A DNA stretch of 64,000 bases from an uncultured Gemmatimonadales bacterium (GCA_963695555.1 CAVOGR010000005.1:32001-96000), one strand, 5' to 3'. Shown: positions 36,166 through 54,857, numbered from the stretch's first letter. Notes: generated from the letters alone by a model not told the origin. Numbers and translations: made by a program.

Positions 36166-37342
36166 TTACGGTTGTCGACTCTCCTTCCGCCTGCTCATCA
36201 CCAACACCCGACCGACCTGTTTCTGCTTGCGATACCCCAACAAGTGAAACATCTGAAGCGCAACGAACCGGGCCACGCGCACGTCGATCACCAGCGTGTC
36301 GGCGAGGGTCGGGTGCCGGCGTACGCCGGGCAGCACGCGGAGCAGCTGTTCAGCGCGGGTATGACGCAGGATCCGCGACACGGTCAGCCAGAAGGGACTG
36401 AATTCCCGGATGACGAAGAAGCCATCGTCGCCCTGGGTCTGATAGAGCGGCATCAGAATCCGCCCGCCGGCGGGGGCATGGATGTCTCCCGACCGGTCCT
36501 CCGCCACCCACTCGCCTTGGGTCAGGGGTTGGAAGCTCTCGTATCCGGGCCGCATGCGAAACCGATCCTCCGGCTGGACAGGGTGGCGATACCGCACCTC
36601 GAACACCCGTGGCAGTCCTCGCCGGTTCTCTTCCAGCAAGCGTTGCGCTCGTTCGACTTCGGCCAACCGGTCGGCATTGGGCAACACGCCGCCGGCGGCC
36701 AGCGCAACCCAGACGCCGGCCTCCAGGAGATCGACTGAAGCGGGGTCTTCGTGGCGGCCGCCTTCGAACCCCATGGTGATGTAGCCGAGGCCGTTCAAGT
36801 ACTCGAGCAGGGTACCCTCGATGTGCTCTTCCAAGCCGAGGATGATCGGGGAGCGAAAGCGGAGGGCAAATGCGCGGTTTCGGAGCGTGTCGCCGACGGT
36901 GGCAAAGGCCGCACTCTTCCCCGAGGTCGTGTGGAGGTCGATGAAGAACGCACCGTGTTGCGCCCGGTCGAGTGCGGTTTCGATGGCTTCGAGCACGTCG
37001 ACCAGTTCCTGGTCTTCACTGATCGCCGGATCGGGCGGGTGACCGTTTCGGAGCGCTACGATGCGTTCGGGCTTGAAGTGTCGGTTGAGGTCGCGGTCGA
37101 TGGCCCGCTCGCCCCGGGCCAGCGCGGCCAAGTTGCCGGCCAACCCTAAGAATTCGCCCCAGATCGGAATGCGCCGGTCGTGGATCGTCTGGAAGATGCG
37201 CTCGAGCGCAGCCACACCCGCGGGCTCGTTGCCGTGCAGACCTGCCGTCGCCACCAACAGCGGGCCCGTGCGCGCGCCAACGATCCGGCCGATCAGCCGA
37301 TCGCGAAGCTGAAGGCCGGACCACAGCGGGTTCGGACGTCAC
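36166..37342 (-). CDS. Succinylglutamate desuccinylase/aspartoacylase (M14-like) hydrolase; frameshift near 5' end
   Basis: GLHGNEPAG, DRDLNR, IDLHTTS, FEGG; N-terminus LIGRIVGARTGP joins GTG 37342 via an indel. Confidence 0.85.
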
Positions 37343-39258
37343 GAGTCTTCGTGGAGCTTGTCGTGCAGCAGGCGCTCGACCATGGGCATGAAGTCGCCGA
37401 CACTGACGATGCCGACGAGTTTACCGTCCTTTACGACGGGAAGGCTTGGAATCCGGTGCCGGCGCATGAGTTCGATGGCCTCAAGGGTGGAGGTTTCCGG
37501 ATCGACCGTTGCCGGGTTGGTGTCCATGATGTCCCTGACGGGAATGGTCAGCTTCCCTTCGCGGCGGTTGCCGCTCGCCAATAAACGTAACACCGATCCG
37601 AATGACACCAGCCCGATCAGGTGATGCTCGTCGTCCTCCACCGGGACCTGCCGGATATGCTTCCAATCCATGAGCAGGGCGGCCAGGTCAACCAGCTCGT
37701 CCTCCTTCACGGTAAAAAGGTCGGTCGTCATGTACTGCTCGACCTTCAAGTAGTGGTGCTTCCAGCCGCCGCCCTCGTCGATCGACGCGAGTTTCCACTC
37801 GTGACATGGCTTGCCGCTCTGCTGGCGGTGAGCGGTTGCGGCGGTGAGCGCAGCCAGCCGCTCGCTCCGGGTGCCCTGCGAGCCCATCTGTAAGAGTGAG
37901 CGCTCGAGCCAGTGGGCCCCGGTCCGGCCGGATGCGACGCGGCTTTCGATTGCGGTGAGATATCGGTCGGTGTCGCGCCGGGCGACACCCGCGCCCCTGA
38001 GCCCCGAGTAGGCCAGGGGAATCAGATCCTTCAGGATCAATTCCCGCGCACCCACCGTTTTCCCGTCCAGCCAGGTAAAGCCGACATTGAGGCCGCGGCG
38101 GGCCGCCGCCAGCACGTTGGCCCGAGCGTCATCGAACTGGATACGCTCGGTGATGTCGGGATACCGCTCCACACCCCCGAGAACGAGCCCGACCCAGAAG
38201 GCCGCGTTGGCCACCTCGTCGAACACGCTGGGGCCGGACGGAAGTACCCGGCACTCGATTCGGAGGTGAGGCACGCCCTGGCACACGCCATAACACGGGC
38301 GGTTCCAACGGTAGACTGTGCCGTTGTACAGCTGCAGGGCCGCGAGGGTCGGCACACCGCCCGCCCGGAGCACCTCGAACGGGTCCTCCGGGTTCTTCGT
38401 CGCCATCAGCGCCGGAATCCGGGCGATGTCCTCACGGAACACCTCGAGCACGGACTGCTTGATCCACTGCTCGCCAAATCGGACCCGTGGCGTGAGTTCC
38501 CTCAGGTGGGGCGTGGTGCGACGGGTGTCGATCGATTGTTGAAAGAGTGCGATGCGGGTCTCGGCCCAGAGCCGCCGGCCGAACAAGAGCGGGGAATTGA
38601 CGCTCGCCGCGAGCACGGGCGCGGTCATCACCTGTGCCACGTTGTAGGTGTGGGCGAAGGCGTCTGGATCGACCTGGAGGTGCACCTGGAAACTGGTATT
38701 GCCGCCCTCCAGCATCACCGAGTCGTGCTCCAGGTTGAGCTCGTCCGCTCCTTGGATGTTGATGCGATAGGTGCCGCCGCGAATCCGAGTGAGTACGTCA
38801 TTGAGGACGTGGTAGCGTTCGCGCGGCGTCATGTTGTCGAGCGACAGATCGGACTTGGCCAGGGTGGGGAGAATGCCCGTGAGCACCACGTCCGCCTGGT
38901 GCTGGTGGGCCTGTGCCCGAACGGCTTCGATGTGGGCGTTGAGCCGCTGTTCCAGTTCGTGGAAACAGCGGTCCGTGAGGTCGAGCGGGTCCAGATTGAT
39001 TTCGAGGTTGAAGGCCGCGAGCTCGGTGGTGTACTCCGGCCCGGCCAGCCCTTCCAAGACCCGGAGCGCCGTCGGCGCAGGCCGCCAGCCCCGGTCGACC
39101 AGAAACAATTCCTGTTCCGCGCCGATCCGGCGCCGGCCCGACTCGATCTGGCCCTGAGCCAGCATCTGCTCCAACGCGCGCAGGTCGTTGAGCAGCGCCT
39201 TGGTGAAAATGCGAAACTCGTCCGGGCCGAGTTTCGGCGCGACCTCTAGAGTTCCCAT
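37339..39258 (-). CDS. Glutamate--cysteine ligase family 2 (GCS2) domain fused to a CBS pair
   Basis: IGAEQELFLV, TELAAFNLE, SFQVHLQV, NSPLL, RIECRVLPSGP; C-terminal MTTDLFTV..IRQVPV..LPVVKDGKLVGIVS. Confidence 0.85.
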   Translation of the reverse strand: MGTLEVAPKLGPDEFRIFTKALLNDLRALEQMLAQGQIESGRRRIGAEQELFLVDRGWRPAPTALRVLEGLAGPEYTTELAAFNLEINLDPLDLTDRCFHELEQRLNAHIEAVRAQAHQHQADVVLTGILPTLAKSDLSLDNMTPRERYHVLNDVLTRIRGGTYRINIQGADELNLEHDSVMLEGGNTSFQVHLQVDPDAFAHTYNVAQVMTAPVLAASVNSPLLFGRRLWAETRIALFQQSIDTRRTTPHLRELTPRVRFGEQWIKQSVLEVFREDIARIPALMATKNPEDPFEVLRAGGVPTLAALQLYNGTVYRWNRPCYGVCQGVPHLRIECRVLPSGPSVFDEVANAAFWVGLVLGGVERYPDITERIQFDDARANVLAAARRGLNVGFTWLDGKTVGARELILKDLIPLAYSGLRGAGVARRDTDRYLTAIESRVASGRTGAHWLERSLLQMGSQGTRSERLAALTAATAHRQQSGKPCHEWKLASIDEGGGWKHHYLKVEQYMTTDLFTVKEDELVDLAALLMDWKHIRQVPVEDDEHHLIGLVSFGSVLRLLASGNRREGKLTIPVRDIMDTNPATVDPETSTLEAIELMRRHRIPSLPVVKDGKLVGIVSVGDFMPMVERLLHDKLHEDS

Positions 39259-39369: not shown

Positions 39370-40953
39370 TCAGCCACCCCACAAGCGGAAGTAGAGCCTG
39401 AGGCCCATTCGCGCCGTCTTCGCCTTGGGCACTCGGCTGCCGCCGGCCCGGACGACACCCTCGTAACTCCAGTACGCCTCGACCGGGAGGCCGGGCCTCA
39501 GTTCATTGGTAGCGCTTGGACTCCGGTAGGTAATGCCGCCGCCCACTACGGTGGCGTTGACGCTACCGTCCAGGCCCAAATCGCTGGCGCTGACACCGGC
39601 AAGGGCGTCTCCCGCGGCCGCGTACGCATAGCTGTCCTCGCCGCGCGACCAGTGGCTCGCCCTTGCTTGGATGGCAAGCGTCGGGGTGATCGCGATGTAC
39701 GGCTGAATGCTCACTCGAACGATGTCGCCCGGGTCCCAGCGGACGGTGGCCAGGCGGTTGGAGAACGGGACGGGCCGCTCCGGCGCGGTGACCCGTCGTT
39801 CCAGCGTCGACGCAAACTGTCGAGTGTAACTCCCCTCGATCCGGGCACCGATCCGCCCGCGCCCGACGTCGGTAATTATGCCTAAGGCCACGTCCAGTTG
39901 CCGGTCGCCGGTGCCGAGCCCGATCAAATCGTTCGAGAGCGGGCGGTACCCGGTCGGCAGCCGGGCCATCACTTGGGCGTAGGTCCTGAACCCGCCTGGC
40001 TTCCCGGGCCGGTCCCAGCGGTCGACAAAAGCGTAGCTGGCCCCGACCTCGATGTCGCCAAGGAGAAACTCGAGCGACTCCGCGAGCGGCAACGCCGCGA
40101 TCGGTCCGGCCGGATTCTCCACGAAGTTGAGGTAGTCGGTTTCAGTGAGTGGGGTTGTAGGCAGTGGTAGTGCGCTGGAGAAGCCGGGCACGCCGAGCGT
40201 CGCGTCGAGCGTGCCCTGCAGAGCCTCGATGTCTCCGAGGATGACGGCGCCTTCCGCGCTCGACGAAAGCGGCAAGAACGGCGTTGCCGTGCCGGGTACC
40301 AACATGAGTCCGTTGAGGTCGTCCCTGAGGAGCGTGGCGTCACTCAAGGTCTGCTCCGCGAGTGCCCGGAGCGTGGGATCGCCGTCGTATTGGCCGGCGA
40401 GCAGATTGGTGTTCAGGGTAACCAGCGCGTTGTCGAGTTCGCTGAAGAACGCCGCCGCCTCGGCGGCACCGGTCTGGGTGCCGAACACCGGATCGGCGGG
40501 ATTGAACCCCGCGTTGGCACCACCGGCGTCGAACCGTTGGGCGGTCTGCACCCGTTGCCGCACGATGGGCACCGTGCCGAACAGCGTCAGCCGCTTGGTC
40601 AGGCCGAGGGCGAGGCCAATGCCCAGGGTACCGACGTTGGCATCGCCCTGGGTCGCGGTGCGCCCGATGCTCAGCCGATAGCTCGACGCGCCCGCAATCC
40701 GTCCAATCGTGGCCTCGGCCGGCAGCAAGTCAGGAAAGAACTCGGCACCGAGTGCGGCGCGCTGGAAGTCGGCAGTATAGACTTCGGTTGCGCCCCGGTT
40801 GAAGCGGCTGTCGAAGTTCCGGAAGGCACCGGTGATCTCGAACCTGACGGCGCCCCGCGGCACACCGATCGCCGGGAGCTGGGCGTGGGCGGCGGAGGGC
40901 ACGGCGGAGGTCAACGCCAGACCGAGGAGTAGTGAAGCGAGGGATTGGCGCAC
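39370..40953 (-). CDS. Secreted/outer-membrane protein of unknown function
   Basis: Signal peptide VRQSLASLLLGLALTSAVPSAAHA|Q; amphipathic beta strands; C-terminal MGLRLYFRLW. Confidence 0.65.
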   Translation of the reverse strand: MRQSLASLLLGLALTSAVPSAAHAQLPAIGVPRGAVRFEITGAFRNFDSRFNRGATEVYTADFQRAALGAEFFPDLLPAEATIGRIAGASSYRLSIGRTATQGDANVGTLGIGLALGLTKRLTLFGTVPIVRQRVQTAQRFDAGGANAGFNPADPVFGTQTGAAEAAAFFSELDNALVTLNTNLLAGQYDGDPTLRALAEQTLSDATLLRDDLNGLMLVPGTATPFLPLSSSAEGAVILGDIEALQGTLDATLGVPGFSSALPLPTTPLTETDYLNFVENPAGPIAALPLAESLEFLLGDIEVGASYAFVDRWDRPGKPGGFRTYAQVMARLPTGYRPLSNDLIGLGTGDRQLDVALGIITDVGRGRIGARIEGSYTRQFASTLERRVTAPERPVPFSNRLATVRWDPGDIVRVSIQPYIAITPTLAIQARASHWSRGEDSYAYAAAGDALAGVSASDLGLDGSVNATVVGGGITYRSPSATNELRPGLPVEAYWSYEGVVRAGGSRVPKAKTARMGLRLYFRLWGG

Positions 40954-40966
40954 GCTGAAAGTTACT

Positions 40967-40994
40967 GGGAGTAGGGAGTAGGGAGTAGGGAGTA
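40967..40994 (+). repeat. Heptamer tandem repeat (GGGAGTA)x4
   Basis: Seen directly. Confidence 0.9.
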
Positions 40995-41080
40995 GGGCTC
41001 GGCGGTTGGGCGCGGTACGGAAATGAAATGCGCAGACGATCCGCCGAACCGCCGAGCCGTCCACCCGCCGATGGCCGATG

Positions 41081-41115
41081 CCGATAGCTGATAGCCGATA
41101 GCTGATAGCTGATAG
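41081..41115 (+). repeat. Heptamer tandem repeat (CYGATAG)x5
   Basis: Seen directly. Confidence 0.9.
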
Positions 41116-41160
41116 CTTCCAAGTTGCGACCCATCCAGCGTCCCCCCATGTTACCCCACG

Positions 41161-41243
41161 GCCCGGGTGGCGAAATGGCAGACGCAAGGGACTTAAAATC
41201 CCTTGGGGGCAACCCCGTGCGGGTTCGAGTCCCGCCCCGGGCA
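41161..41243 (+). tRNA. tRNA-Leu (anticodon TAA), CCA not encoded
   Basis: GCCCGGG/CCCGGGC acceptor stem, AGGGA-CTTAAAA-TCCCT anticodon arm, long variable arm, GGTTCGAGTCC T arm, A discriminator. Confidence 0.96.
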
Positions 41244-41649
41244 TTGGTTGAGGGACGGCGACTTTACGGCCGCGCCGCAGGTTCCTTATTCGCAGTGATA
41301 TTTCCTCGGATGCGGTCCACCTCTGTGGGCCCCATGTGACCACGGACCACGACTCAAAGCGTCGTGCTCATCCCTCCGGGAACTGCCGCCGCAACCAGTC
41401 GCGGCTGCCGGGCTTCCTCCCACCTGCGCCACTGGAGAGATACTCCCCACTGGGGTAGAATCGGCCGGTCGAGAACCGGCCCCTGGACGTCCTACCAGCT
41501 CTTCTGCTCGTCCCCACCGCACATCCTAAGTTCATACCCGATCTTGGTTTATCAGCACGAAGTGCATTTCCTTCCTTTGCGTTGGGCCCTGGAGTCCGAC
41601 TCGCACGGCGATTGCTCTACCAGGGAGGAGACCAACATGACCGGAGGAT

Positions 41650-41952
41650 ATGGTGCCACCGAACAGCGGGGTAAAAGGCGGTCTCTGTTCGACCTGCGAC
41701 AACGCTCCCACCTGCAGTTATCTGCGCTCGCGCAGATACCCGGTGCTTCAGTGCGAAGAATTTACGGCTTTCACGCCGCCTGACGTCAGGACGCGGCAGC
41801 CCAGTCGGCGCAGGCCCGAAGCGGACAATCCCCACATGTCGCCGGTGAGGCCGAACCACCTCCTCGGCCTCTGCGGCACCTGTGAGGAGTGGGAGACCTG
41901 CACGTACCCACGTTTCGAGGGAGGCGTCTGGCAATGTGAGGAGTATCACTAG
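41650..41952 (+). CDS. Small protein with two Cys4 repeats (putative metal/Fe-S binding)
   Basis: GLCSTCDNAPTCSY..VLQCEEF and GLCGTCEEWETCTY..VWQCEEY. Confidence 0.75.
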   Translation: MVPPNSGVKGGLCSTCDNAPTCSYLRSRRYPVLQCEEFTAFTPPDVRTRQPSRRRPEADNPHMSPVRPNHLLGLCGTCEEWETCTYPRFEGGVWQCEEYH

Positions 41953-41994
41953 CTCGACGGCGGCTCGGATCGGAGGACTGAAGGGCGTGACCCG

Positions 41995-42847
41995 ATGACA
42001 ATGCGGATGAACCCGGAAGACGTATTTCAGATCGTCGACCGGCACAACGGGAGTCAGGGCGCACTCATCTCGATTCTCGAAGACGTGCAAGCGTCGTACA
42101 ACTACCTGCCCGAAGCGGCGCTCAGAATCGTTGCGGGGCGAACCGGGCGCTCGCTGGTCGACGTGTATGGGGTCGCGACGTTCTATCGGGGCTTCAGCCT
42201 GCAGCCCAGGGGCAAGCATCTGGTGACCGTATGCATGGGGACCGCGTGCCACGTGCGCGGTGCACGGGGCGCACTCAAGGGGTTCCAACGGCGACTCGGG
42301 GTGGACGCCGGCGGCACCACGAAGGACAGCGAGTTCTCCCTTGCCACGGTCAACTGTCTTGGGGCGTGCGCGCTCGCACCGGTGGCGGTTGTCGACGGGG
42401 AATATTTCCGAAACGTCAAGGAACGGGACGTCCCGGGCGTGCTCGACCGGGCCTCGCGGATCGATAGCGACCTTGCGTTGAGCAGCGACGAGCGGGTCTT
42501 CGGCGTGAGCGTGTCATGTCCCAACTGCAATCGAAGCCTGATGACTCATGAGCACTTGCTCGATGGACATCCGATGGTTCGGGTGACGGCCTCGTTCGGC
42601 CGAAAACACGGCTGGATTCGACTGAGCAGTCTGTACGGCGACTATCGGATCCGGAGTGAGTACGAAATTCCGCAAGGGTGCCATTGTTCACTTCTTCTGT
42701 CCCCGGTGCCACGCGGAGCTAAAGTCGGGGCGGCTCTGCCCTGACTGTGACGCACCCACGATCCTCCTGCTGGTCAGGGGTGGTGGGACGGTCCAGATAT
42801 GCTCGCGCCGCGGCTGCAAGCAACACCTGTTGGATTTGGGCTCGTGA
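41995..42847 (+). CDS. NuoE/HydC-like [2Fe-2S] subunit with Cys-rich C-terminal extension (frameshift near 42678)
   Basis: VATFY, VCMGTACHVRG, CLGACALAP; tail CPNC..FFCPRC..CPDC..CSRRGC. Confidence 0.85.
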
Positions 42848-42911
42848 CGTCGCCGCGTTGGCGAAGAGTGGCGGGTGGGACAACCCGGCAACCGACGAGA
42901 CACACCGACTA

Positions 42912-45900
42912 ATGGCCAGACTCAGCACGATCGACGAACTGGAGGAACTGCGGCAGACCATCCGAGACGGTGAGGAGCGGCTTGGGCCGCGCATCACTGT
43001 CTGCGCGGGAACAGCGTGCCAAGCGAGCGGTGCGAACGACGTTCAACGCATCATCAAACGACACCTCATCGAGCACGATCTCGTTGATCGGGTTGCCCTG
43101 CGCATCACAGGGTGTCATGGGTTCTGCGAAATGGGCCCCTTCGTCGTGGCAGAGCCTCGGGCAGCCTTCTATCCCAAGATCCACACGGGCGATGTCGCCG
43201 CCATCGTCGATGCAGCACTCGCCGGCGAATGTGTCGAATCTTTGCTTTACCGAAACCCCTCGACGGGTGAACGCCTGCCGGTGTCTCGACGAGATCCCGT
43301 TCTTCGCCAAGCAGAAGCGCGTGCTCTTGGCGAGAAACCAAGCGGTCGATCCCATCCGGTTGTTCGACTACATCGCCCGTGGCGGCTATGAGGCGCTGGT
43401 CAAAGCCCTGACGGAGTACACCCCTGAGGGCATCATCGACCAAGTCCGGCGCTCCGGTCTGCGGGGCCGGGGGGGGCGGGGTTCCCCACGGCCGAGAAGT
43501 GGGAGGCAGCCCGCCAACGAGACGGTACCGACGGCAAGTATGTGGTGTGCAATGCGGACGAGGGCGATCCCGGTGCCTACATGGATCGCAGCATTCTCGA
43601 GGGCAATCCCCACTCCGTGATCGAAGGCATGATCATCGGCGGCCTGGCCATGGGCGCGACCGAGGGATTCGTCTTCGTGCGACACGAGTACCCCCTGGCC
43701 ATCAAGCACCTGCTCATCGCGCTCAGGTTGGCACGGGAATTCGGATTACTCGGTGAGCACATCCTGGGCACCGGGCTCGACTTCGACATCAACATCGTCA
43801 AGAGCGCCGGTGCATTCGTGTGTGGTGAAGAGACTGCCCTCATCCGCACCATCGAAGGTGCCGTGGGCGAGCCACGGCAGCGACCGCCGTTCCCAACCGA
43901 TAAAGGCATCAACGGCAGACCCACCTGCATCAACAACGTGGAGACATGGGCCAACGTGCCCATCATCATGACCCAGGGCGGCGACGCCTACGCGCGGGTC
44001 GGAACCCCGACCAGCACCGGCACGAAGGTCTTCTCGGTCGTCGGGAAGATCAGAAACACGGGCCTGGTCGAGGTACCGATGGGAACCTCGATACGGGAGA
44101 TCGTCTACGACATCGGCGGCGGACCGCCGGACGGTGGCCGGATCAAGGCGGTCCAGATCGGTGGACCGTCCGGCGGATGCATTCCGCATTGGCGCTTCGA
44201 TCTCCCGATCGACTACGACAGCCTGAAGCAGGTCGGCGCCATCATGGGGTCGGGTGGCATGATCGTGATGGACGAGAGCACCTGCATGGTGGACGTGGCC
44301 AAGTACTTCATGGGCTTTCTCAAGGACGAGTCGTGCGGCAAGTGCTACCCGTGCCGCAAGGGCACCCAGCGGATGTGGGAAATCCTCGATGACATCACAC
44401 AAGGGAAGGGTACAGTCGCGCACCTGGACCTCCTCGAGGAGCTCGGCCAGACCGTGGCCGATGCGAGCATGTGCGGGCTGGGCCAATCGGCCGCCAACCC
44501 GGTCCGCAGCACGCTGCGGTACTTCCGGGGCGAGTACGAGCGGCACGTGATCGACGGCGTGTGCGACGCCCATGTCTGCAAAGGGCTCACGGGCGCACCA
44601 TGCCAATCGGCCTGTCCAGTCGGCACGGAGGCGTGGCGCTACGCGGCGCTCATCGCGCAGGGCGAGTACGAGGAGGCGTATCGAGTCATTCGGAAGTCGA
44701 ATCCGTTCCCCTCCGTGTGCGCCCGGGTGTGTGACCACAAGTGCGAGCAGCATTGCCGGCTCGGGACCACGGGACAGGATCCCGTCGCGCTCCGGGCCCT
44801 CAAGCGGTTCATTACCGATCGCGTCGATCCGACCACGTACCAGCCCGAGCGGCACACCGCCGCCGCCGTGCCGGGCAAGAAGATCGCGATCGTTGGGGCC
44901 GGCCCCGCGGGCCTGACTGCGGCGCACAACCTCTCGCTCAGAGGCTACCGGTCAACCGTCTTCGAGGCTGCGGACCATCCGGGAGGCATGCTCGTGCAGG
45001 GCATCCCCAGCTTCCGCCTGCCGCGGGAGGTCGTGCAACAGGAAATCGACGCGCTGATCGATGAGAACATTACGCTGCGTTGCGGCATGGCGTTGGGCCG
45101 GGGCTTCACGGTCGACAGTCTGTTCGAGGATGGCTACGACGCGGTATTCCTGGCCCTGGGTGCCCACGAGAGTTGGCGCATGAATATCCCGGGCGAGGAT
45201 CTGGCCGGCGTCCACGCCTCCATGGAGTTCCTGAAAGCCTGGAATATGCGCGGCGAATCCGTCGCGCACGGCAGGGTCGGAGTCATCGGTGGGGGCAACT
45301 CGGCTATCGATGCCGCTCGCGTGGCTCGGCGTCAGGAAGCAGTATCCGAGGTCACCATCTTCTACCGCCGCACCCGCATGGAAATGCCCGCCTTCGCCGA
45401 GGAAATCGATGGAGCCCTCGAGGAAGGCGTCCAGCTGGAGTTGTTGGTGTCGCCCGTGGCCCTGGTCGGCGAGGACGGACACCTGACAGCGGCCGAGTTC
45501 GTCGTCAACGAGCTGGGTGAGATAGACAAGAGCGGGCGGCGCACGCCGACCGCCAAGCCTGGATCCGAATACCGCGTGCCGCTGGACACCCTGATCGTCG
45601 CCATCAGTGAAGCGGCGAGCGATGTCGGAGCCGGGCACATCTCCGGCCTCGAGTTGAGAGATGGCATGGTGGCGGTCGATCGACGCACCCTTTGCACCGG
45701 ACGGCCCGGGCTCTTCGCCGGTGGTGATGTAGCCTCGGGGCCAAACACAGTCATTGATGCCATCGCGGCCGGAAGACGGGCCGCCGACGTCATCGAGCGG
45801 TATCTCCAGGGACGAGACCTGGTGGCGCCCGCCGAGCCCCGCCTGCCGACGGTCTACGTCGCACCGATGGTCGACCAGCCGGAAGACAGCGGCGCGCGCG

Positions 45901-46084
45901 AAGGGTTCTTGTGCCGGTTCGATCCCCGGAACAGCGTCGGCACTCGTTCGTCGAAGTCGAGGAAACGCTGACACCCGAGGATGCCATCCGGGAGGCCAGG
46001 CGGTGCCTGCGGTGCGACCTGGAGTTCACGAGCTGCCCGGAGGCTGAAGAGGCCTTCCGAGGGCCTGGCAGAAGCCATCGATGA
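42912..46084 (+). CDS. NuoF/HydB-like FMN/NADH subunit fused to a GltD-like FAD/NADPH domain (frameshifts near 43278, 43490, 45905)
   Basis: [83 protein letters not shown]. Confidence 0.87.
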
Positions 46085-46812
46085 TTACGCTGACCATCAA
46101 CGCGGTGACCGCGCACGTGGAGGGCGGGACGACGCTGCTCGAGGCGGCGCAGTTCCTGGGGTTCCCGATCCCGACGCTGTGCCACATGGAAGGGCTGTCG
46201 CCCTACGGGGCGTGTCGCCTGTGCGTCGTGGAGATTGGCGAGGGAGCCAAGTCGAGATTGGTCAGCGCCTGCACCTACCCCGCCGAGGAGGGACTCGCGG
46301 TTCGCACCGCCTCGTCACGGGTGGTGAGAACCAGGAAGATGATTCTCGAGCTGTTGCTGGCATCCTGCCCGCAGTCGAAAACGATTCAGGATCTTGCGGC
46401 AGCTCACGATGTGCGACAGCAGCGGTTCCGACAGGAATACGAAGACTGCATCCTGTGCGGGCGCTGCGTCCGGATGTGCGAGGAGCAGATGATGGCCAAG
46501 GCCATCGGTTTTCGCGGACGGGGCGAGCAGCGCAGCATTGGCACCCCGTTTGACGCCAAGTCCGACGTCTGCCGGTTGTGCGGCGGCTGCCTCTACGTGT
46601 GCCCGGTTTGTGAACTGCGGTGTACCTACGCGGAGCCGGAGAAGGCGATCTGTGGCGGCTGCGCCAATCTGAGTCCTCCGTGCCTCGATGGGCACGAGTT
46701 TGATGACATGATGTGCTATATGAATCCCTGCGCCGCCTGTGAGATCGTGCACCGCCAAGGGGCGGACAAAACGTCTAAGGAGACCGGCGATGTCGCTGTC
46801 CAGAGTGAATAG
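46081..46812 (+). CDS. NuoG/HydA N-terminal-like Fe-S protein without a catalytic domain
   Basis: IPTLC..GACRLCVVE..SAC [2Fe-2S]; CILCGRCVRMC and CRLCGGCLYVCP [4Fe-4S]; Cys-rich tail. Confidence 0.85.
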   Translation: MITLTINAVTAHVEGGTTLLEAAQFLGFPIPTLCHMEGLSPYGACRLCVVEIGEGAKSRLVSACTYPAEEGLAVRTASSRVVRTRKMILELLLASCPQSKTIQDLAAAHDVRQQRFRQEYEDCILCGRCVRMCEEQMMAKAIGFRGRGEQRSIGTPFDAKSDVCRLCGGCLYVCPVCELRCTYAEPEKAICGGCANLSPPCLDGHEFDDMMCYMNPCAACEIVHRQGADKTSKETGDVAVQSE

Positions 46813-48373
46813 GTCAGCAGCAACCCTCACCAAGAACCGAACGGACGGTTCGGTGTCCCCCATCTCGGGGATGTGCGTCACTTGCGTCGATGGTTGCATC
46901 GGTATGTGCGAGATCGGCAAGTCTGCCTTCCGCGGCCACGAAGTGATCTACCCGCAACCGTTCGGCGTCATTACCACCGCGTCCGAGAAGGACTACCCCG
47001 TCGATTACTCGCACATCAACATCATGGGCGGTGTGGTGGGAGCGCAGGGCATCGAGGCCGACAGTGACCTGGCCGTGTTTCCCAATGTGAATCTCGAGGT
47101 GCGGTTCGGCCACGACCAGGGGCTCAAGTTTCGGTATCCCTGGATCATCCCGGGCATCGGATCTACCGACGTGGCCAAGAACAACTGGGAGGGTCTGGCT
47201 ATCGGCTCGGCCCTGGCCGGAACGGGACTGACGATTGGTGAGAACGTCACAGGGATGGACCCTGCCTCGGTGATCGAGGGCGGACACGTCGTCGACACCG
47301 CGGACCTCAAGCGGCGCGTCAAGCTGTACCAGGAGCATCAGCGGGACGGCTACGGCGCCATCGTGGTGCAGACCAATGTCGAGGGCACGCGTCTGGGTGA
47401 GCACGAGTACGCGATCAACACCCTCGGGGTCGAATGCGTCGAGATCAAGTGGGGGCAGGGTGCCAAGAATATCGGCGGGGAAGTCAAAATCAAGGATCTC
47501 AAGAAGGCCCAGATGCTGCATGAGCGCGGCTACATCGTCCTTCCCAATCCCACGGACCCCGCGATCATCAAGGCGTTCAAGGCCGGCGCGTTCAAGGAAT
47601 TCGAGCGGCACTCTCGCGTCGGCATGGTAACCGAAGAGGCATTTGCGGAGCGAGTCGCATACCTGCGCCGCTTGGGCGCCAAGTACGTCTTCCTCAAGAC
47701 CGGTGCCTATCGGCCCGCGGCGCTGGCGCAGGCCCTGGCGTACGGGTCCAGGTACGGAATCGACCTCGTGACGGTGGACGGAGCCGGCGGTGGCACGGGC
47801 ATGAGTCCCTGGCGGATGATGAACGAATGGGGTGTCCCGGTGGTCGAACTCCACTCACTGCTCCACCAGTATGCTGCGCGCCTGGCCGCCAAGGGCCAAC
47901 CAGTCCCGGCACTGGCGCTGGCCGGCGGTTTCACCTTCGAGGACCAGATCTTCAAGGGCCTGGCTCTCGGGGCACCGTTCGTGAAGCTGATCGGCATGGC
48001 GAGGAGCCCTCTGGCGGCGGCCATGGTGGGGAAGACCATCGGGAAGGCCATCGATGCGGGGCAGATCCCCGTATACGTAGAGCGTTTTGGCCGCACCACT
48101 GATGAGATCTTTGTCACCGCTCACACGCTACGCGACGAGTTGGGTGACGATGAATTCGAGAGGCTCCCGACCGGCGCCATCGGTCTCTACACCTACTATG
48201 AGAGACTGGCCCAGGGCCTCCGGCAGCTCCTGGCGGGCAGCCGGAAGTTCTCGCTCGACCACATGTCCCGGGACGATCTGGCCGCGCTCACGCCGTTGGC
48301 CGCACAGGTCACCGGTCTGCCTTATGTCATGGATGTGGACATGGGGCAGGTCGACGCCATCCTGGGCGTGTAG
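46790..48373 (+). CDS. Stand-alone FMN-binding glutamate synthase family protein
   Basis: EIKWGQGAKNIGGE, TVDGAGGGTG, LAGG..KGLALGA glutamate-synthase FMN-barrel motifs. Confidence 0.85.
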   Translation: MSLSRVNRSAATLTKNRTDGSVSPISGMCVTCVDGCIGMCEIGKSAFRGHEVIYPQPFGVITTASEKDYPVDYSHINIMGGVVGAQGIEADSDLAVFPNVNLEVRFGHDQGLKFRYPWIIPGIGSTDVAKNNWEGLAIGSALAGTGLTIGENVTGMDPASVIEGGHVVDTADLKRRVKLYQEHQRDGYGAIVVQTNVEGTRLGEHEYAINTLGVECVEIKWGQGAKNIGGEVKIKDLKKAQMLHERGYIVLPNPTDPAIIKAFKAGAFKEFERHSRVGMVTEEAFAERVAYLRRLGAKYVFLKTGAYRPAALAQALAYGSRYGIDLVTVDGAGGGTGMSPWRMMNEWGVPVVELHSLLHQYAARLAAKGQPVPALALAGGFTFEDQIFKGLALGAPFVKLIGMARSPLAAAMVGKTIGKAIDAGQIPVYVERFGRTTDEIFVTAHTLRDELGDDEFERLPTGAIGLYTYYERLAQGLRQLLAGSRKFSLDHMSRDDLAALTPLAAQVTGLPYVMDVDMGQVDAILGV

Positions 48374-48556
48374 CCGGCAGGCGTCTCGTGTTGGAGCCGT
48401 TCCTCGGTGCCCAAGGATCGACTACGTTTGTCGTCAGCCGAGCGACGGTGGGCCGGCCAGAGTGCAGGTGCGGACAGCGAGACTCCGTGATCCCTGGCCG
48501 ACATCCATCGATTAACGCCCAGGCTGGGCACCGAGCCGAGATGGAGCAGGGGGGAC

Positions 48557-50267
48557 ATGCAGACGACCGGGCGGCCTTTGAGGAGTTTCGAACTCTCGCG
48601 CCGGATAGTGAATCTGGCGAATCAGGCGATCCCGCGAGTCGAGTTCTTGAAGGGTCTGTCGGACCTCCTGCTGCAGTACTCGGATTGCGACGGGCTCGAG
48701 ATCCGGGTCCACGGCCAGGTGGAGTATCGGGCGCGGGCGACCGCCAGGCCCGAGCGATCATTTCGCTTCGAACCCTCCAGCGCTGACGGACCGAGGGATG
48801 ACCCAGAGCCGCTCGTCGAGATCGACCGATCCGACCTCGGGCGGCTCGTGCGGGACGAACTCGAAGGGAAGCTGGCTCTCCCGTCGCAGTGCTTTACGCC
48901 GTACGGCAGTTTCTGGACCGGGGATATGGCTGAGACGGTGGGACCGTACTCGTCTCGGCAATCCGCCGAATCAGGCAGCTCCCGCATCGCCTCAATGGCG
49001 CTCGTTCCCTTCGTCATCGATGACAACAACTTCGGCATCCTGCAGCTTGAATGTGCGCAGCGGCATGCGTTTGCCCACGACACGATTGAGCTGTACGAGG
49101 CCCTGGTGGAGACAGTCGGGTTCGCGATCGCTGAGCGGCGGGCACGAGCCGGCACTGAGGGAGCGCGTCAAGGAGCTGACGTGCCTCTACCGCATCGCGC
49201 GGGTGATCGAGGAAAGCGGAGACAGTCCGGAGGCAGCCCTCAGTCGGATCGTCGAGGCGCTGCCGGCCGCGTGGCAGTATCCCGAGTTGGCGGTGGCTCG
49301 AATTGTCCTCGACGAATCGGAGCACGTGACGGGCGACATCGAGGCGACCTACGTGCGGCAGGTTGCGAACATCGTCGTGAACGGAGCCTGTCGTGGGACG
49401 ATCGAGGTCGGATACGTCCAGGAGGTACCATACGGCGTGAGCGAGCCCTTCCTGCAAGAAGAAGAGCACCTGATCAACGCCGTCGCGAGGGAGATCGAGG
49501 AGTTCGTCAAGCGCCGCCAAGCCTCCGCGGAACGATTACTGTTGGAGCAGCAACTTCGTCACGCCGACCGATTGGCCACCATCGGCCACTTGGCCGCGGG
49601 CGTCGCGCACGAAATCAACGAGCCGCTCGGCGGCATTCTGGGATTTGCACAGCTAGCCCGAAAGGGCTCCGCGGTGACGGAGAGCACCGCGAACGACCTG
49701 GATAGGATCATTGCCTCCTGTCTCCAGGCTCGGGAGATCGTCAACAAGTTGAAGCTCTTTGCCCGACAAGCGCCCATCCAAAAGACGAGGGTGTCGCTCG
49801 CCGACATCGTCCAGGATGCCTGCTCGTTGGTGAGGGGTCGGTGTGCGACTCAGGGCATCGATATCGTGACCGACTTCGATGCTGAGTTACCCACCGTGCC
49901 CGCGGATCCACTTCAACTCAAGCAAGTACTCGTTAACCTGGCTGTAAACGCGGTGCAGGCGATGCCGGGCGGGGGCGTGCTGACGGTCGCAACGCGCCTG
50001 GACGGCCACACAGCCGTCATCGGGGTCCAGGATACCGGCGTCGGGATGGCCGAGGACATCCTGGCGAAGATCTTCAGTCCGTTCTTCACGACCAAGGACG
50101 TTGGCGAAGGGACCGGCCTGGGTCTGTCTGTGGTACATGGAATCGTCACGGCACATGGCGGCACAATCGACGTTGTGAGTAAGAGTGGCAACGGTGCCAA
50201 GTTCGTTGTGCGACTGCCACTCTCGGCCACACCGGGGGGCCGGGTGGGTCAGGAGACCAAGCCGTGA
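48557..50267 (+). CDS. Cytoplasmic GAF-type sensor histidine kinase (frameshift near 49148)
   Basis: LAAGVAHEINEPL H-box, NLAVNA, DTGVG, FFTTK..GTGLGL. Confidence 0.88.
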
Positions 50268-51604
50268 GCGGCCAGAAGGAACGGATCCTGGTCGTCGATG
50301 ATTCACCCGACGCACGGGAGGTGCTCAGCCGCAACCTGATAGCGGAAGGCTATCACGTGATGACCGCGCCCGGCGTGGCGGAAGCCACCGGGATTCTCGA
50401 GGCGACACCCGTGGACCTCGTCATCACCGATCTCAAGATGCCCAAGGTCGGCGGGATTGACCTGATCCGGCACGTGCGGGCACGGTTCAAAGAAGTTGGG
50501 GTCATCATGATCACCGGCTATGCCTCCATCGAAACGGCCGTGACGGCGGTAAAGGAGGGAGCCGAGGACTATCTCGCCAAGCCGTTCACCGACTCCGAAC
50601 TCCTTGCCGCGGTGCGCGATGCTCTTCAGAAGGCACGCTTTCGACGCGCAGCGAACTCCTACGGCGGAACGGCACCAATCCATGCTGTTGGGCTGGTCGG
50701 CGAATCCGAGGCGATGCAACGGGTCTATGATGCACTGGTGAAGGCCGCGTCTACGCCATCGACTGTGCTCATCACCGGCGAGAGTGGCACCGGGAAGGAG
50801 CTGGTGGCCAGAGGGATTCACTACCACGGATCACGGGCTCGGGCGCCCTTTGTGCCCATCAACTGCGGCGGTATACCGGAAGGTTTGGTGGAGAGCGAGC
50901 TGTTTGGTCACGTCAGAGGCGCGTTTACCGGGGCCACAACCTCGCGGGCCGGCTTCTTCCAGGCGGCGGACGGCGGCACAGTCTTCCTGGACGAGATCAG
51001 TGAGACCAGCCTGGCCATGCAAGTCAAGCTCCTTCGAGTGCTTCAGGACAAGGAGATCCGTATGGTCGGTGGCACTCAGCAACTGAAGGTCGACGTGCGC
51101 GTCATCGCCGCCACCAACAAGAACCTGCTCGACCTGGTTCGCAGACAGTTGTTCCGTGAGGACCTGTATTTCCGAGTCAACGTGATCCCGATCGACGTTC
51201 CGCCCCTGAGGGACCGGGACGACGACGCCATCCTCCTCGCGCGACACTTCGTCCTCAAGTACTCCGACGAGTTGGGCAGGGCACCACCGCAGTTCTCTGA
51301 CGGCGTCCTGGATGCGTTCCGTCACTATCACTGGCCGGGAAACGTGCGCGAATTGGAAAACGTGATTCACCGGCTCCTGGTCTTGAGCGAAGGCGGTGTC
51401 GTAGATATCCCCGACTTGCCGGCAGTGATGCGCTACTCGGTCGGGAGCGGCGTCGGCCGGAACTGCACGCTGGCCGAAATCGAGGCCGAGCACGTGCGTA
51501 ATGTCCTGGCAAGCGTGGACGGCAACAAGACGCGAGCCGCTGAGATTCTCGGCATTGATCGCAAGACATTGCGAGAGAAGCTGAAGCGCACTTCGATGGG
51601 CTGA
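50264..51604 (+). CDS. Sigma54-dependent response regulator (NtrC/AtoC family)
   Basis: Receiver (VVDD, DLKMP), [24 protein letters not shown], Fis-type HTH. Confidence 0.94.
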
Positions 51605-52188: not shown

Positions 52189-52659
52189 ATGCCTCCATAC
52201 TCTTTGATCATCAACGGCCGGCAGCTGGACGTTGACGCCCCCGCGGAAAAGCCCCTCCTTTGGGTGCTCAGGGAGGATTTCGGACTGAAGGGCACCAAGT
52301 ACGGTTGCGGAGTAGGGATCTGCGGAGCATGCACGGTTCACCTCGACGACGAGCCGATTCGATCCTGCGTGACCCAGATTGCCAGCGTTGCGAATCGCTC
52401 CGTTATTTCAATCGAGGGCCTCTCCCCGGACGGAACGAACCCCTTGCAACTCGCGTGGGTTGAACGGGACGTGTCCCAGTGCGGCTACTGTCAGGCCGGT
52501 CAAATCATGTCTGCCGCAGCGCTGCTCGCCCGCACCCCATCGCCAACGGATGAGGATGTCGACAGGGCCATGTCCGGAAACCTGTGCCGGTGTGGGACCT
52601 ATCGCCGCATTCGGGCGGCCATCCACCAGGCCGCCGAGCTGAAGAGAGAGGAGGGATGA
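52189..52659 (+). CDS. Xanthine-oxidase-family [2Fe-2S] small subunit (IorA-like)
   Basis: [34 protein letters not shown]. Confidence 0.92.
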
Positions 52660-54857
52660 CAATGGTGACTCGGCGCGAGTTCATCCGCGTGACGGCGGTG
52701 GCAGGAGGTGGTTTCCAGCTGGCCGTGGCACTCCCCGCCCGGCTTTGGCGGATGGCAGGAGCCCTCCCCACTGCCGAGCTCACAGTTTTCGTCCACATCG
52801 GCACCGACGACATCGTCACGATCACCGTGCCCCGACCCGATATGGGCCAAGGTGTTCGGACCTCGCTGCCCATGCTCATCGCCGAAGAGCTGGATGCTGA
52901 CTGGTCCCTAGTCCGTATCGAGCAAGCCGACCTGAACGAAAGCAGGTACGGGAGCCAGTACTCGGGAGGAAGTCACAGCATCTGGGCGAGCTGGGTGCCT
53001 CTGCGGCGGGCTGGTGGCACGGCACGGTGGATGCTGGTCGAGGCGGCTGCGCGCCGGTGGGGCGTGGGAGCCTCGCAGTGCGAGACCGGGCCGGGCGTCG
53101 TGCGCCATCCCCCCAGCGGCCGCACCGCCCGCTACGGCAGTCTCGCGGCTGAAGCAGCGAACCTCCCGGTTCCCGACGATCCACCGCTCAAGGATCCAGC
53201 CGAGTTTCGCATCATCGGTCACGCTACCGGCAACGTAGACGCCCCCGACATAGTGGTCGGGTCGGCCGTCTTCGGGTTGGACGTGGAGCGCCCCGGCATG
53301 CTGCGAGCGGTAGTCGCGCGGTCGCCGGTATTCGGCGGAAGGCTAGTATCGGTCGATCCGTCAGCAGCGCTGGCTGTTCCAGGGGTACGGGACGTTATCG
53401 AGGTGCCCGGAAGTACATTTCGAAGGCCACGCAACGAGCCCCTCGTCCCAGACGGCGTCGCCGTTGTGGCGGACAGCGTATGGGCGGCGCTACAGGGACG
53501 AAAGGCGCTGCGCGCGGAGTGGGAATCCGGCTCAGGATCCGCCGAGAGCACCGAGGCGTTCTGGGCGCGCTGCGAGGAGGCTGCCTCGAGGCCGGACCCA
53601 ACGGTGGTACGACAGGACGGCGACGTCGCAGCTGCCCTGAATGACGCAGCCCGGAGAGTGAAGGCCGTATACCGGCTCCCCTTCCTGGCGCACGCACAGA
53701 TGGAACCGTTGAACTGCGTCGCCGAGGTCTCACGGGCTGGGTGCGAGATCTGGGCGCCAACGCAGAATCCAGCTGGCGCCCGCGAAGTTGCGGCTGCTGT
53801 CACAGGGCTCCCCCCCGACATGATCCAGGTGCACGTGATCCGATCGGGAGGCGGTTTTGGCCGGCGCTTCTACGGCGACTACGTCGCGGAGGCCGTGTTC
53901 TTGTCGAGCGCCGTAGGTGCCCCGGTCCAAGTCGTCTGGACCCGGGAAGACGACATGCGCCATGGCGCCTATCGTCCGGCCGGCTTCTATGCGATTGAGG
54001 GTGGGCTCGACGAGGCGGGGAACATCGTCGCATGGCACGATCATCTGGTGAACGCGAGCCGGGACAGATCTCTAGGGATGTCCCGACCAGAACGATACGC
54101 AGGTCAAATGTATGAGTACGCGTTCCCGATGGGCTTCATCCCAAACGTTCGCCTCGAATACACGGAAGTAGACAGCGTGATACCCCGCGGTCAGTGGCGC
54201 GCGATAGAGGACTCGTCGAATGTCTTCGTCCTCCAGAGCTTCCTTGACGAGCTCGCTCGCGCCGCGGGTCGCGACCCGGTCGAGATGCGCCTGTCCATGC
54301 TGGGCGAGCCGCGCGGCGTACCCTACTGGGGCGGGACCTACGACACGGGCCGCTTGCGTGGCGTGTTGGAGACCGCGGCGGCCGCCGCGGAATGGGGAAG
54401 GCGACCCCCGGAAGGAGTCGGGCGCGGCATTGCCGCGAGCTACGCGAATAACGCGTATGTCGCCCACGTGGTGGACGTCGCGCTCGATGACGTGGGGGAG
54501 GCGCGTGTGCTGCGGGTAGTGTCGGCCGTGGATTGTGGACGAGTCGTCAATCCCAGCGGAGCCGAGGCTCAGGTCGAGGGGTCGATCGTCTTCGGGCTCA
54601 CGGCTGCCCTGTACGGCCGAATTACCGTGGATGGGGGCAGCGTTACGGAGAGCAACTATCACGACTACCCTCTGATGCGGCTCAACGAGACCCCACAATT
54701 CGATATCCACTTTATCGAGTCGCAGGCCGCGCCGTCAGGGATCGGGGAGGGAGCCCTGCCACCCATCGCTCCGGCCCTTACGAACGCCATCTACAATCTG
54801 AGCGGAGTCCGCATCCGTACCCTGCCACTGGCGGGACAGCAGCTCCGCAGAGCGTGA
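52656..54857 (+). CDS. Molybdopterin-binding large subunit (IorB-like), Tat signal
   Basis: TRREFI Tat motif; MGQG..AEEL; HAQMEP; GGGFGRR; AQVEGS; GIGE. Confidence 0.9.

Follow-up and report, generated by a model that had tools for sequence, protein, structure and literature searches.

The locus described here raises the question which reaction is carried out by an enzyme that joins the electron-transfer core of the HydABC-type (Bfu) family, a recently recognized class of energy-coupling enzymes, to a flavin mononucleotide (FMN) barrel of the glutamate synthase (GltS) type. It lies in a stretch of 64,000 nucleotides from an uncultured Gemmatimonadales bacterium (GCA_963695555.1 CAVOGR010000005.1:32001-96000), hereafter called the window, which has a G+C content of 62-69% and belongs to a genome of 3.57 Mb in 14 contigs that is 87% complete. 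Open reading frames (ORFs) and Pfam matches define seven genes between positions 41650 and 51604, every one of them on the plus strand (Table 1). Four encode a NuoE-like subunit (BfuC), a NuoF-like subunit (BfuB), a short, type-2-like NuoG-like subunit (BfuA) and a GltS-type FMN barrel. We propose, with a probability of about 0.5, that the operon encodes a nitrogen-regulated, glutamine-independent, glutamate-synthase-like Bfu enzyme, which probably forms an uncharacterized redox-driven route between 2-oxoglutarate, ammonia and glutamate. The product would be an iron-sulfur flavoenzyme of four subunits, accompanied by a small Cys-rich protein and by a dedicated sensor kinase and sigma54 activator. 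A first-pass annotation of the DNA had described the NuoE-, NuoF- and NuoG-like genes and the barrel, and all its genes and motifs were found back in Pfam searches and translations. As it had stated, no H-cluster, NiFe or Mo/W catalytic domain is present among the Pfam matches in 41650-51604. The unit likewise lacks a hydrogenase, formate dehydrogenase or pterin domain. The first-pass annotation had placed the end of the cluster at 48373; the unit instead runs on through a GAF-domain kinase and a sigma54-dependent regulator to 51604.

The three subunits of the core were compared with the criteria that define the Bfu family (PMC9304861). BfuC matches PF01257 with 150.9 bits over residues 12-152 and thereby contains the thioredoxin-like [2Fe-2S] domain (C1) of the family. 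Its best relatives in the PDB are the HydC chains 8a6t_C (E 4.5e-38) and 7t2r_C, and both its Cys motifs and the CPxC/CxxC pairs of its tail are conserved in 53 sequences. The NuoF part of BfuB is closest to NiFe-HydB 7t2r_B (E 9e-199), followed by FeFe-HydB, WorB, NfnB and StnB. Its FMN/NADH site and B1/N3-type [4Fe-4S] cluster are recognized by PF01512 and PF10589, with the motifs CGKCxPC and CGLGQ aligning to 7t2r_B, and an N-terminal [2Fe-2S] domain (B5) is indicated by partial PF01257 matches of 25-28 bits and by an alignment that begins at residue 7 of 7t2r_B and conserves the Cys residues. An H-x5-C-x4-C motif is present in the translation, and the B2 ligand positions C438, C476, H525, C531 and C536 of 7t2r_B correspond to C, T, H, C and C in BfuB of the window. 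The B2 His is nearly universal in bifurcating BfuB proteins and absent from non-bifurcating HydB homologues, and the second ligand position is more often occupied by Thr (PMC9304861). At the level of sequence, the NuoEF part has the hallmarks of HydB/BfuB subunits that bifurcate electrons, as the first-pass annotation had recognized. BfuA matches PF13510 and Fer4 models and has motifs for one [2Fe-2S] and two [4Fe-4S] clusters, without the motif for a His-ligated cluster. In the PDB it is most similar, over residues 3-190, to WorA (chain 9mqx_A, 247 aa; E 6.4e-35). Seven Cys residues in its tail (C181, C191, C194, C201, C212, C217 and C220) are invariant in 30 sequences, and the protein is 69-84% identical across phyla.

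Pfam detects no GltD part in the NuoG-like protein; the GltD module forms the C-terminus of the NuoF-like protein. The pieces of this fusion protein in the window match partial PF01257, PF01512, PF10531, PF10589, PF14691 and PF07992. In the intact protein of locus L003, which is 97% identical to the window at the DNA level, the order of the domains is PF01257 (82-156), PF01512, PF10531, PF10589 (516-600), PF14691 (606-693) and PF07992 (712-1009). In both proteins PF14691, the GltD-type 2x[4Fe-4S] domain, follows directly after PF10589, the FAD and NAD(P)H domains come next, and there is no Fer4 domain, so that the canonical B3/B4 clusters of the family are lacking. The GltD part itself is closest in the PDB to NfnA (9n5u_A, 105-503) and StnC (8oh5_C, 99-503). 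Twelve related loci encode a shorter BfuB of 572-670 aa, and a C-terminal Fer4 dicluster, i.e., canonical B3/B4, was found in all three that were scanned. On a quick tree of the barrel with 70 rows (42 GltD-type, 11 Fer4-type and 17 untyped) the two forms are intermixed, and well-supported branches force at least three changes between them; loci L032 and L072 are sisters with 99% support. The GltD module thus stands where BfuB otherwise has its ferredoxin-facing 2x[4Fe-4S] domain, and from the Fer4 domains in the short BfuB proteins and the intermixing on the tree it follows that an NADPH/FAD module and a ferredoxin-facing domain are interchangeable at this one position. The view of the first-pass annotation that GltD serves as the reductase of a GltB-type partner needs to be modified: the module sits at the B3/B4 place of HydB-type subunits and can be exchanged for Fer4 among relatives. 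The repeated swap is a natural experiment on how the low-potential branch of Bfu enzymes can be rewired.

The fourth subunit, the barrel, is by sequence a predicted distant relative of GltS and the presumed catalytic subunit. It matches PF01645 with 45.1 bits (cut-off 20.4) over profile positions 185-303, i.e., 119 of 369. An hhalign comparison of the barrel family with a canonical-type GltS FMN-domain protein from the same genome (L001:919-2529) gave a probability of 97.7 and an E-value of 2e-12 over 332 columns, and the motifs KxGQGAK, DGxGGGTGxxP and GG..LALGA are common to the barrel and the GltS FMN domain. The 3Fe-4S motif of GltS is missing, and the barrel family instead carries an N-terminal C-x2-C-x3-C-x3-C motif. 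The AlphaFold2 (AF2) model (predicted local distance difference test [pLDDT] 85) is an FMN (beta/alpha)8 barrel, for which Foldseek returned ferredoxin-dependent GltS (Fd-GltS; 1ofd) as top match (E 2.5e-10, 15% identity), with lactate monooxygenase, flavocytochrome b2 and IDI-2 narrowly behind (E 1e-9). A PDB search with the single barrel sequence gave matches at chance level only (E>0.6), no NCBIfam model matched it, and in the Atlas it falls in unnamed or generically named clusters only. The identification as a glutamate-synthase FMN domain in the first-pass annotation is thus upheld by PF01645 and the GltS motifs, but as a distant relationship only, without a PDB sequence match and without the 3Fe-4S motif. 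Complex prediction for the NuoG-like protein and the barrel yielded an ipSAE of 0.00 in two runs without controls and counts neither way. The canonical-type protein used in the comparison (G000:C1, L001 919-2529) is itself a 536-aa fusion of a Rieske-type [2Fe-2S] motif (CxH...CxxH) and a canonical GltS FMN domain; it keeps the motif C-x5-C-x4-CP and is the sole other PF01645 protein found in the genome.

The barrel and the Bfu core are obligately linked. A barrel relative is encoded in at least 596 of 601 candidate stretches from species-representative genomes (one genome per species), and all of the at least 8000 scored protein clusters at 90% identity are barrel relatives. The best 80 of the at least 596 relatives, referred to below as the 80 loci, are 74-99% identical to the barrel of the window and come from Gemmatimonadota, Zixibacteria, Ignavibacteria, Planctomycetota (including Scalindua), Acidobacteriota, Myxococcota, Thermodesulfobacteriota, Bacteroidota, Chlorobiaceae and others; no listed record stems from a cultured strain. 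Wherever the contig reaches far enough upstream of the barrel, the NuoG-like (77/77), NuoF (71/71) and NuoE (61/61) genes are found, so that the four core genes always occur together; the first-pass annotation had named a failure of the FMN protein to co-occur with these genes as a refutation, and no such failure is seen. Among Gemmatimonadota, 4 of 149 high-quality genomes and 4 of 81 genera have the barrel. Because of this patchy occurrence, and because the quick barrel tree is out of step with taxonomy, the operon is considered an accessory, horizontally mobile module.

This linkage bears on the possibility that the genes encode a domain-permuted Stn/Nfn-Bfu transhydrogenase acting on NADH, NADPH and perhaps ferredoxin, next to which the barrel is an unrelated neighbor. 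All domains of StnABC (NuoE, NuoF, NuoG-N and GltD) are indeed present, and the closest relatives of the GltD part are NfnA and StnC. However, no gene is better conserved than that of the barrel, which overlaps the BfuA gene and occurs without exception, whereas GltD is dispensable, being absent from 12 loci that keep the barrel. In addition, BfuB of the window has no ferredoxin-type domain, and the Fer4 form would be left without a third substrate if the barrel were not part of the enzyme. We consider a transhydrogenase very unlikely.

The neighborhood of the barrel points to nitrogen metabolism. Clustering of all neighboring ORFs yielded few recurrent neighbors: the kinase, the sigma54 regulator, glutamate dehydrogenase (GDH) and a protein with a PPDK_N domain. 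GDH is found beside the operon in 14 of the 80 loci, in varied phyla and arrangements, and in three of these it separates nuoE from the small gene. For a P0122-like sister branch of the barrel (about 48% identity), 80 metagenome loci were traced, 35 of which have at least one nitrogen-assimilation neighbor (glutamine synthetase [GS] 13, full-length GltB 10, GAF-ANTAR 10, NrpR 7, GDH 7, Amt 5 and GltD 5). NuoEFG-like genes are nearby in only 5-6 of these 80 loci. In three sister-branch loci (L121, L126 and L130) an NrpR-type regulator is encoded directly upstream of the barrel and a NuoG/F/E-like cluster lies convergent downstream, and since this cluster adjoins the sister-branch barrel in all three, the partnership of barrel and Bfu core recurs in a second arrangement. 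The link to glutamate and ammonia made in the first-pass annotation is supported to this extent.

The operon also appears to have its own regulation. The sigma54 -24/-12 consensus is TGGCAC-N5-TTGC, and near-consensus sites (at most one mismatch, GG/GC core) were found upstream of the operon in 20 of 54 related loci compared to 13 of 1080 random windows. The element of the window (Table 1) is kept as xGCACG-N4-TTGC in the relatives L003, L004 and L005 within an otherwise diverged spacer. Kinases of the type encoded in the operon (HisKA/HATPase part) are present in 38 of the 80 loci and the sigma54 regulator gene cluster in 37. Among NCBIfam models, the regulator scores highest with ntrC (423.8 bits) and AtoC, without reaching the cut-off of either. 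Proteins of 600-1100 aa with a PPDK_N domain are encoded beside the barrel in 21 of the 80 loci, and their N-terminus is homologous to the N-terminal sensor region (about 340 aa) of the kinase. Because this region is common to both, the PPDK_N proteins may represent a second output of the kinase's sensor. These phosphoenolpyruvate-utilizing, ATP-grasp proteins, found in L059 (11828-14605), L055 (6554-9802), L054 (5657-8716) and 18 others, are encoded directly after the barrel gene in many loci, and some have a receiver-like N-terminus or a C-terminal nucleotidyltransferase domain.

Taken as a glutamate-synthase-like Bfu enzyme, the complex could work as follows. NADH at the FMN of BfuB and a second donor of lower potential would jointly feed or drain the core, the second donor being NADPH for the form of the window, through its GltD module, and ferredoxin for the rarer form. 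Electrons would pass from the clusters of BfuA to a cluster at the N-terminal four Cys residues of the barrel and from there to its FMN, where the imine of 2-oxoglutarate and free ammonia would be reduced to glutamate, or the reverse. The barrel would then be the 'third-substrate' module of a new Bfu-family enzyme, and reductive amination could be driven at a lower effective potential than with NADH alone, without ATP. Expression would probably be switched on by the GAF kinase and the NtrC-type activator upon a nitrogen- or 2-oxoglutarate-related signal. A more far-reaching version, possible but doubtful, is ATP-independent, high-affinity ammonium assimilation, in which the Bfu core pools NADH with ferredoxin or NADPH and aminates 2-oxoglutarate where an NAD(P)H-dependent GDH fails, redox energy replaces the ATP of the GS and glutamate synthase (GS-GOGAT) route, and a dedicated sensor and NtrC-type activator induce the operon under nitrogen limitation. 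We speculate that pooling NADH with a low-potential donor, which would matter only at low ammonium, fits an operon under NtrC-type sigma54 control.

The same four subunits might also act without any energy coupling, as a plain NADH- and/or NADPH-dependent GltS-like reductase in which NuoEF and GltD are alternative inputs and the B2 site and the N-terminal [2Fe-2S] domain are inherited baggage. NAD(P)H alone is able to reduce 2-oxoglutarate plus NH4+ at ordinary ammonium concentrations. Moreover, in ordinary GltBD the GltD subunit simply feeds in electrons from NADPH (PMC8097209), and the GltD-like flavin of Stn does not bifurcate (PMC10482914). On the other hand, the B2 His that non-bifurcating HydB homologues are reported to lack (PMC9304861) is present here, and GltD lies exactly at the place of the ferredoxin-facing domain, with which it was swapped repeatedly; this argues that GltD and the ferredoxin-facing domain belong to one and the same branch of a coupled enzyme. 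An uncoupled reductase is therefore conceivable, though we are inclined to doubt it.

Several observations weigh against a coupled enzyme that makes glutamate. The 2-oxoglutarate + NH4+/glutamate couple has a potential of about -0.12 to -0.14 V at 1 M NH4+, which becomes about 30 mV more negative with each ten-fold decrease in ammonium, and at high ammonium it is much more positive than the substrates to which such a core is usually coupled. The known third substrates of Bfu enzymes have potentials near or below that of NAD, with E' at about -280 mV for NADH and about -500 mV for ferredoxin (PMC9304861). Because the amination couple at high ammonium lies far above these values, the logic of Bfu enzymes fits only at low ammonium or in another coupling mode. 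With respect to the barrel, the PF01645 match is weak and partial, the 3Fe-4S motif C-x5-C-x4-CP, which L001:919-2529 has, is not found at the corresponding position of the barrel family, and the identity to solved GltS structures is only 15-17%. A search of the PDB with the family profile returned no GltS at E<=0.01; all that it matched were de novo TIM barrels, by way of a short match that was repeated. VIA-align ties the model at Z ~25 with 2-hydroxy-acid oxidases and IDI-2. The glutamine amidotransferase (PF00310) and GXGXG (PF01493) domains of GltS are neither in the operon nor found in the 87% complete genome; the lack of an amidotransferase partner in the gene island had been noted in the first-pass annotation. 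Within the barrel clade of the window GDH is the only metabolic neighbor, and the strongest evidence from the neighborhood comes from the sister branch at about 48% identity instead of this clade. The -24 element of the window is non-canonical, and the window and three Gemmatimonadota relatives have CG or AG at -24. The lack of canonical GOGAT is not correlated with the presence of the cluster. The proposed substrate as such derives only from distant homology and gene neighborhood.

With regard to GOGAT, GXGXG is missing in all four closed carrier chromosomes, a fifth carrier (a draft metagenome-assembled genome) has one 48-bit match, and the domain was not found in three of four further Gemmatimonadota carriers. 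It is also missing in four of five non-carrier relatives and in G154. The idea that the cluster replaces canonical GOGAT was rejected, as the equal absence from non-carriers makes the comparison uninformative.

Some of these points would also agree with a barrel whose substrate is an amine or a different 2-oxo, 2-hydroxy or imino acid, for example as a 2-hydroxyglutarate- or lactate-type dehydrogenase working by confurcation, or with N-methylglutamate-synthase-like chemistry. FMN-dependent 2-hydroxy-acid oxidases and IDI-2 match the model as well as GltS does in both structural comparisons, PF01645 covers the protein weakly and in part, and an adjacent GDH fits a pathway that consumes 2-oxoglutarate as well. 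However, the motifs KxGQGAK and DGxGGGTGxxP differ from the His/Arg active site of 2-hydroxy-acid oxidases, and the neighbors of the sister branch are ammonium-assimilation and not fermentation genes. Another substrate is thus unlikely in our judgment, and glutamate-synthase-like chemistry is preferred.

The genes of the window are interrupted by five single-base indels relative to L003 (Table 1), and in the uncorrected window NuoF-GltD is spread over three frames and the GAF kinase over two. These frameshifts suggest that the cluster might be a decaying pseudogene array in this genome. In L003 all cluster genes are intact, with a NuoE-like protein of 283 aa and a kinase of 569 aa. Contigs of two DNA and two RNA-library public runs, taken from other samples than that of the window, contained the frame-restoring difference in every covering run (4/4 at 42674, 43269 and 43469, and 3/3 at 45895 and 49151). 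Because the 97% identical relative and the contigs of all four runs restore the frames, the five frameshifts are assembly errors and the genes are intact in nature. Substitutions between the window and L003 are mostly synonymous (synonymous versus other: barrel 30 versus 7, NuoF-GltD 34 versus 8 and regulator 34 versus 4), and together with the absence of the indels from the four runs this indicates that the cluster genes are functional. The pseudogene explanation, hardly credible on these grounds, was rejected. The RNA-library contigs (X8 and X9) span the whole operon, a weak hint that does not show transcription.

Table 1. Features of the Bfu-barrel operon in the window (positions counted from the first nucleotide of the window).
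Feature	Position	Strand	Evidence and remarks
Sigma54-like -24/-12 element TCGCACGGCGATTGC	41601..41615	+	1 mismatch to consensus; non-canonical CG at -24
Small 8-Cys protein, 100 aa	41650..41952	+	Two C-x2-C-x5-C-x12/13-C-E-E-[FY] motifs; family unassigned
BfuC/NuoE-like subunit with Cys-rich (zinc-ribbon-like) C-terminal extension	41995..42847	+	PF01257; frame broken by extra A at 42674
BfuB (NuoF-like) fused to GltD-type module, ~1057 aa after correction	42912..46084	+	Pfam; assembly indels at 43269, 43469 and 45895
Short BfuA (NuoG-N-like), 243 aa, with 7-Cys C-terminal tail	46081..46812	+	PF13510, Fer4 models
Divergent GltS-type FMN (beta/alpha)8 barrel, 527 aa	46790..48373	+	PF01645; N-terminal C-x2-C-x3-C-x3-C
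GAF-domain sensor histidine kinase	48557..50267	+	GAF_2, HisKA, HATPase_c; frame broken by extra G at 49151
NtrC-family sigma54-dependent response regulator	50264..51604	+	Response_reg, Sigma54_activat, AAA_lid_14, HTH_8

NuoF-GltD starts at ATG 42912 and overlaps the NuoG-like gene in an ATGA at 46081-46084. The start of the barrel gene is most likely ATG 46790, which predicts a protein with the length of most listed homologues and results in an overlap of 23 nt with the NuoG-like gene, in line with the overlap noted in the first-pass annotation. The small protein has no Pfam match and no NCBIfam model, and in the Atlas it is found in 'hypothetical protein' clusters only. Its eight Cys residues are invariant in 24 sequences, and tblastn placed it ahead of the NuoE-like gene in 38 of the 59 loci that were eligible; the AF2 model (pLDDT 58) was unusable for a fold search. 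Indel differences to some of the runs also occur at 41645, 48440 and 51614, in or near intergenic DNA, and further genes of the window may carry similar single-base breaks. Contig depth jumps (summed word depth up to 228) at 50669-51362, which encodes the AAA+ part of the regulator, and loose ends are numerous there, probably owing to cross-mapping of conserved regulators from other organisms. Directly upstream of the operon, and divergent from it, lies an ORF of 657 aa (39370-41343, minus strand) without a Pfam family at E<=1e-4. Further upstream (36166-39258, minus strand), a CBS-domain GCS2-family carboxylate-amine ligase and an AstE/AspA-like protein (succinylglutamate desuccinylase family) are encoded; both are glutamate-related by family name and neither is kept beside the operon elsewhere. 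Beyond the regulator follows a MoCoBD gene (52584-54857), which is not conserved among the related loci.

Comparison with known systems places the operon in the Bfu family, of which 18 of 57 clades are without known function by the authors' count (PMC9304861). Our literature search found no paper that describes a HydBC/Bfu core together with a GltB-like barrel. Glutamate synthase goes unmentioned in the main text of PMC9304861; the supplementary tables of that paper were outside the search, and Fer4-type members may hide among its uncharacterized clades. The first-pass annotation had named a match to a characterized enzyme as a further possible refutation, and none was found. The nearest candidates are StnABC and Nfn-Bfu (NfnABC; S. 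ovata 8oh5, C. saccharolyticus 9bov and T. sibiricus 9n5u), whose NuoF and GltD parts are among the best PDB matches. In these enzymes GltD is located on the NuoG-like subunit (StnC/NfnA), where it forms the third-substrate branch, and BfuB keeps its ferredoxin domain (PMC10482914), whereas here GltD replaces the C-terminal ferredoxin domain of BfuB. They consist of three subunits without a barrel, whereas a fourth, barrel subunit is present here in all 80 loci. Because GltD sits on BfuB in place of the ferredoxin domain, the cluster, as read from its sequence, is not Stn/Nfn-Bfu.

The tungsten-containing aldehyde oxidoreductase WorABCSL of A. mobile, with its BfuABC 'plug' (9mqx), shares with the operon a short BfuA of about 245 aa without the His-cluster motif, and resembles it in architecture, with a separate catalytic subunit that feeds a minimal BfuABC core (PMC12318220). 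Its catalytic partner is a W-pterin enzyme with a polyferredoxin, whereas the operon supplies an FMN barrel with one Cys motif; here BfuA has an additional 7-Cys tail and BfuB carries GltD instead of Fer4 in most loci. With glutamate synthase (NADPH-GltBD and Fd-GltS) the operon has in common a barrel homologous to the FMN domain, a GltD-type module in the same operon and, for the sister branch, a nitrogen-assimilation gene context. It differs from glutamate synthase in the absence of the amidotransferase, central and GXGXG domains and of the 3Fe-4S motif, in the N-terminal four Cys residues of the barrel and in the fusion of GltD to NuoF. HydABC and NiFe-HydABCSL are closest in sequence to BfuB and BfuC, and the B2 residues C, T, H, C and C are as reported for FeFe-type enzymes (PMC9304861); unlike these hydrogenases, the operon has no hydrogenase domain or subunit, and in the GltD form the C-terminal ferredoxin domain of BfuB is replaced. 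The module is widespread and forms a self-contained unit that includes a sensor, and its conservation across phyla is unusually high. If the barrel performs glutamate chemistry, electron bifurcation would be linked to central nitrogen metabolism, a connection not described so far. New within the known Bfu family are the catalytic module, i.e., the barrel, and the rewiring of BfuB.

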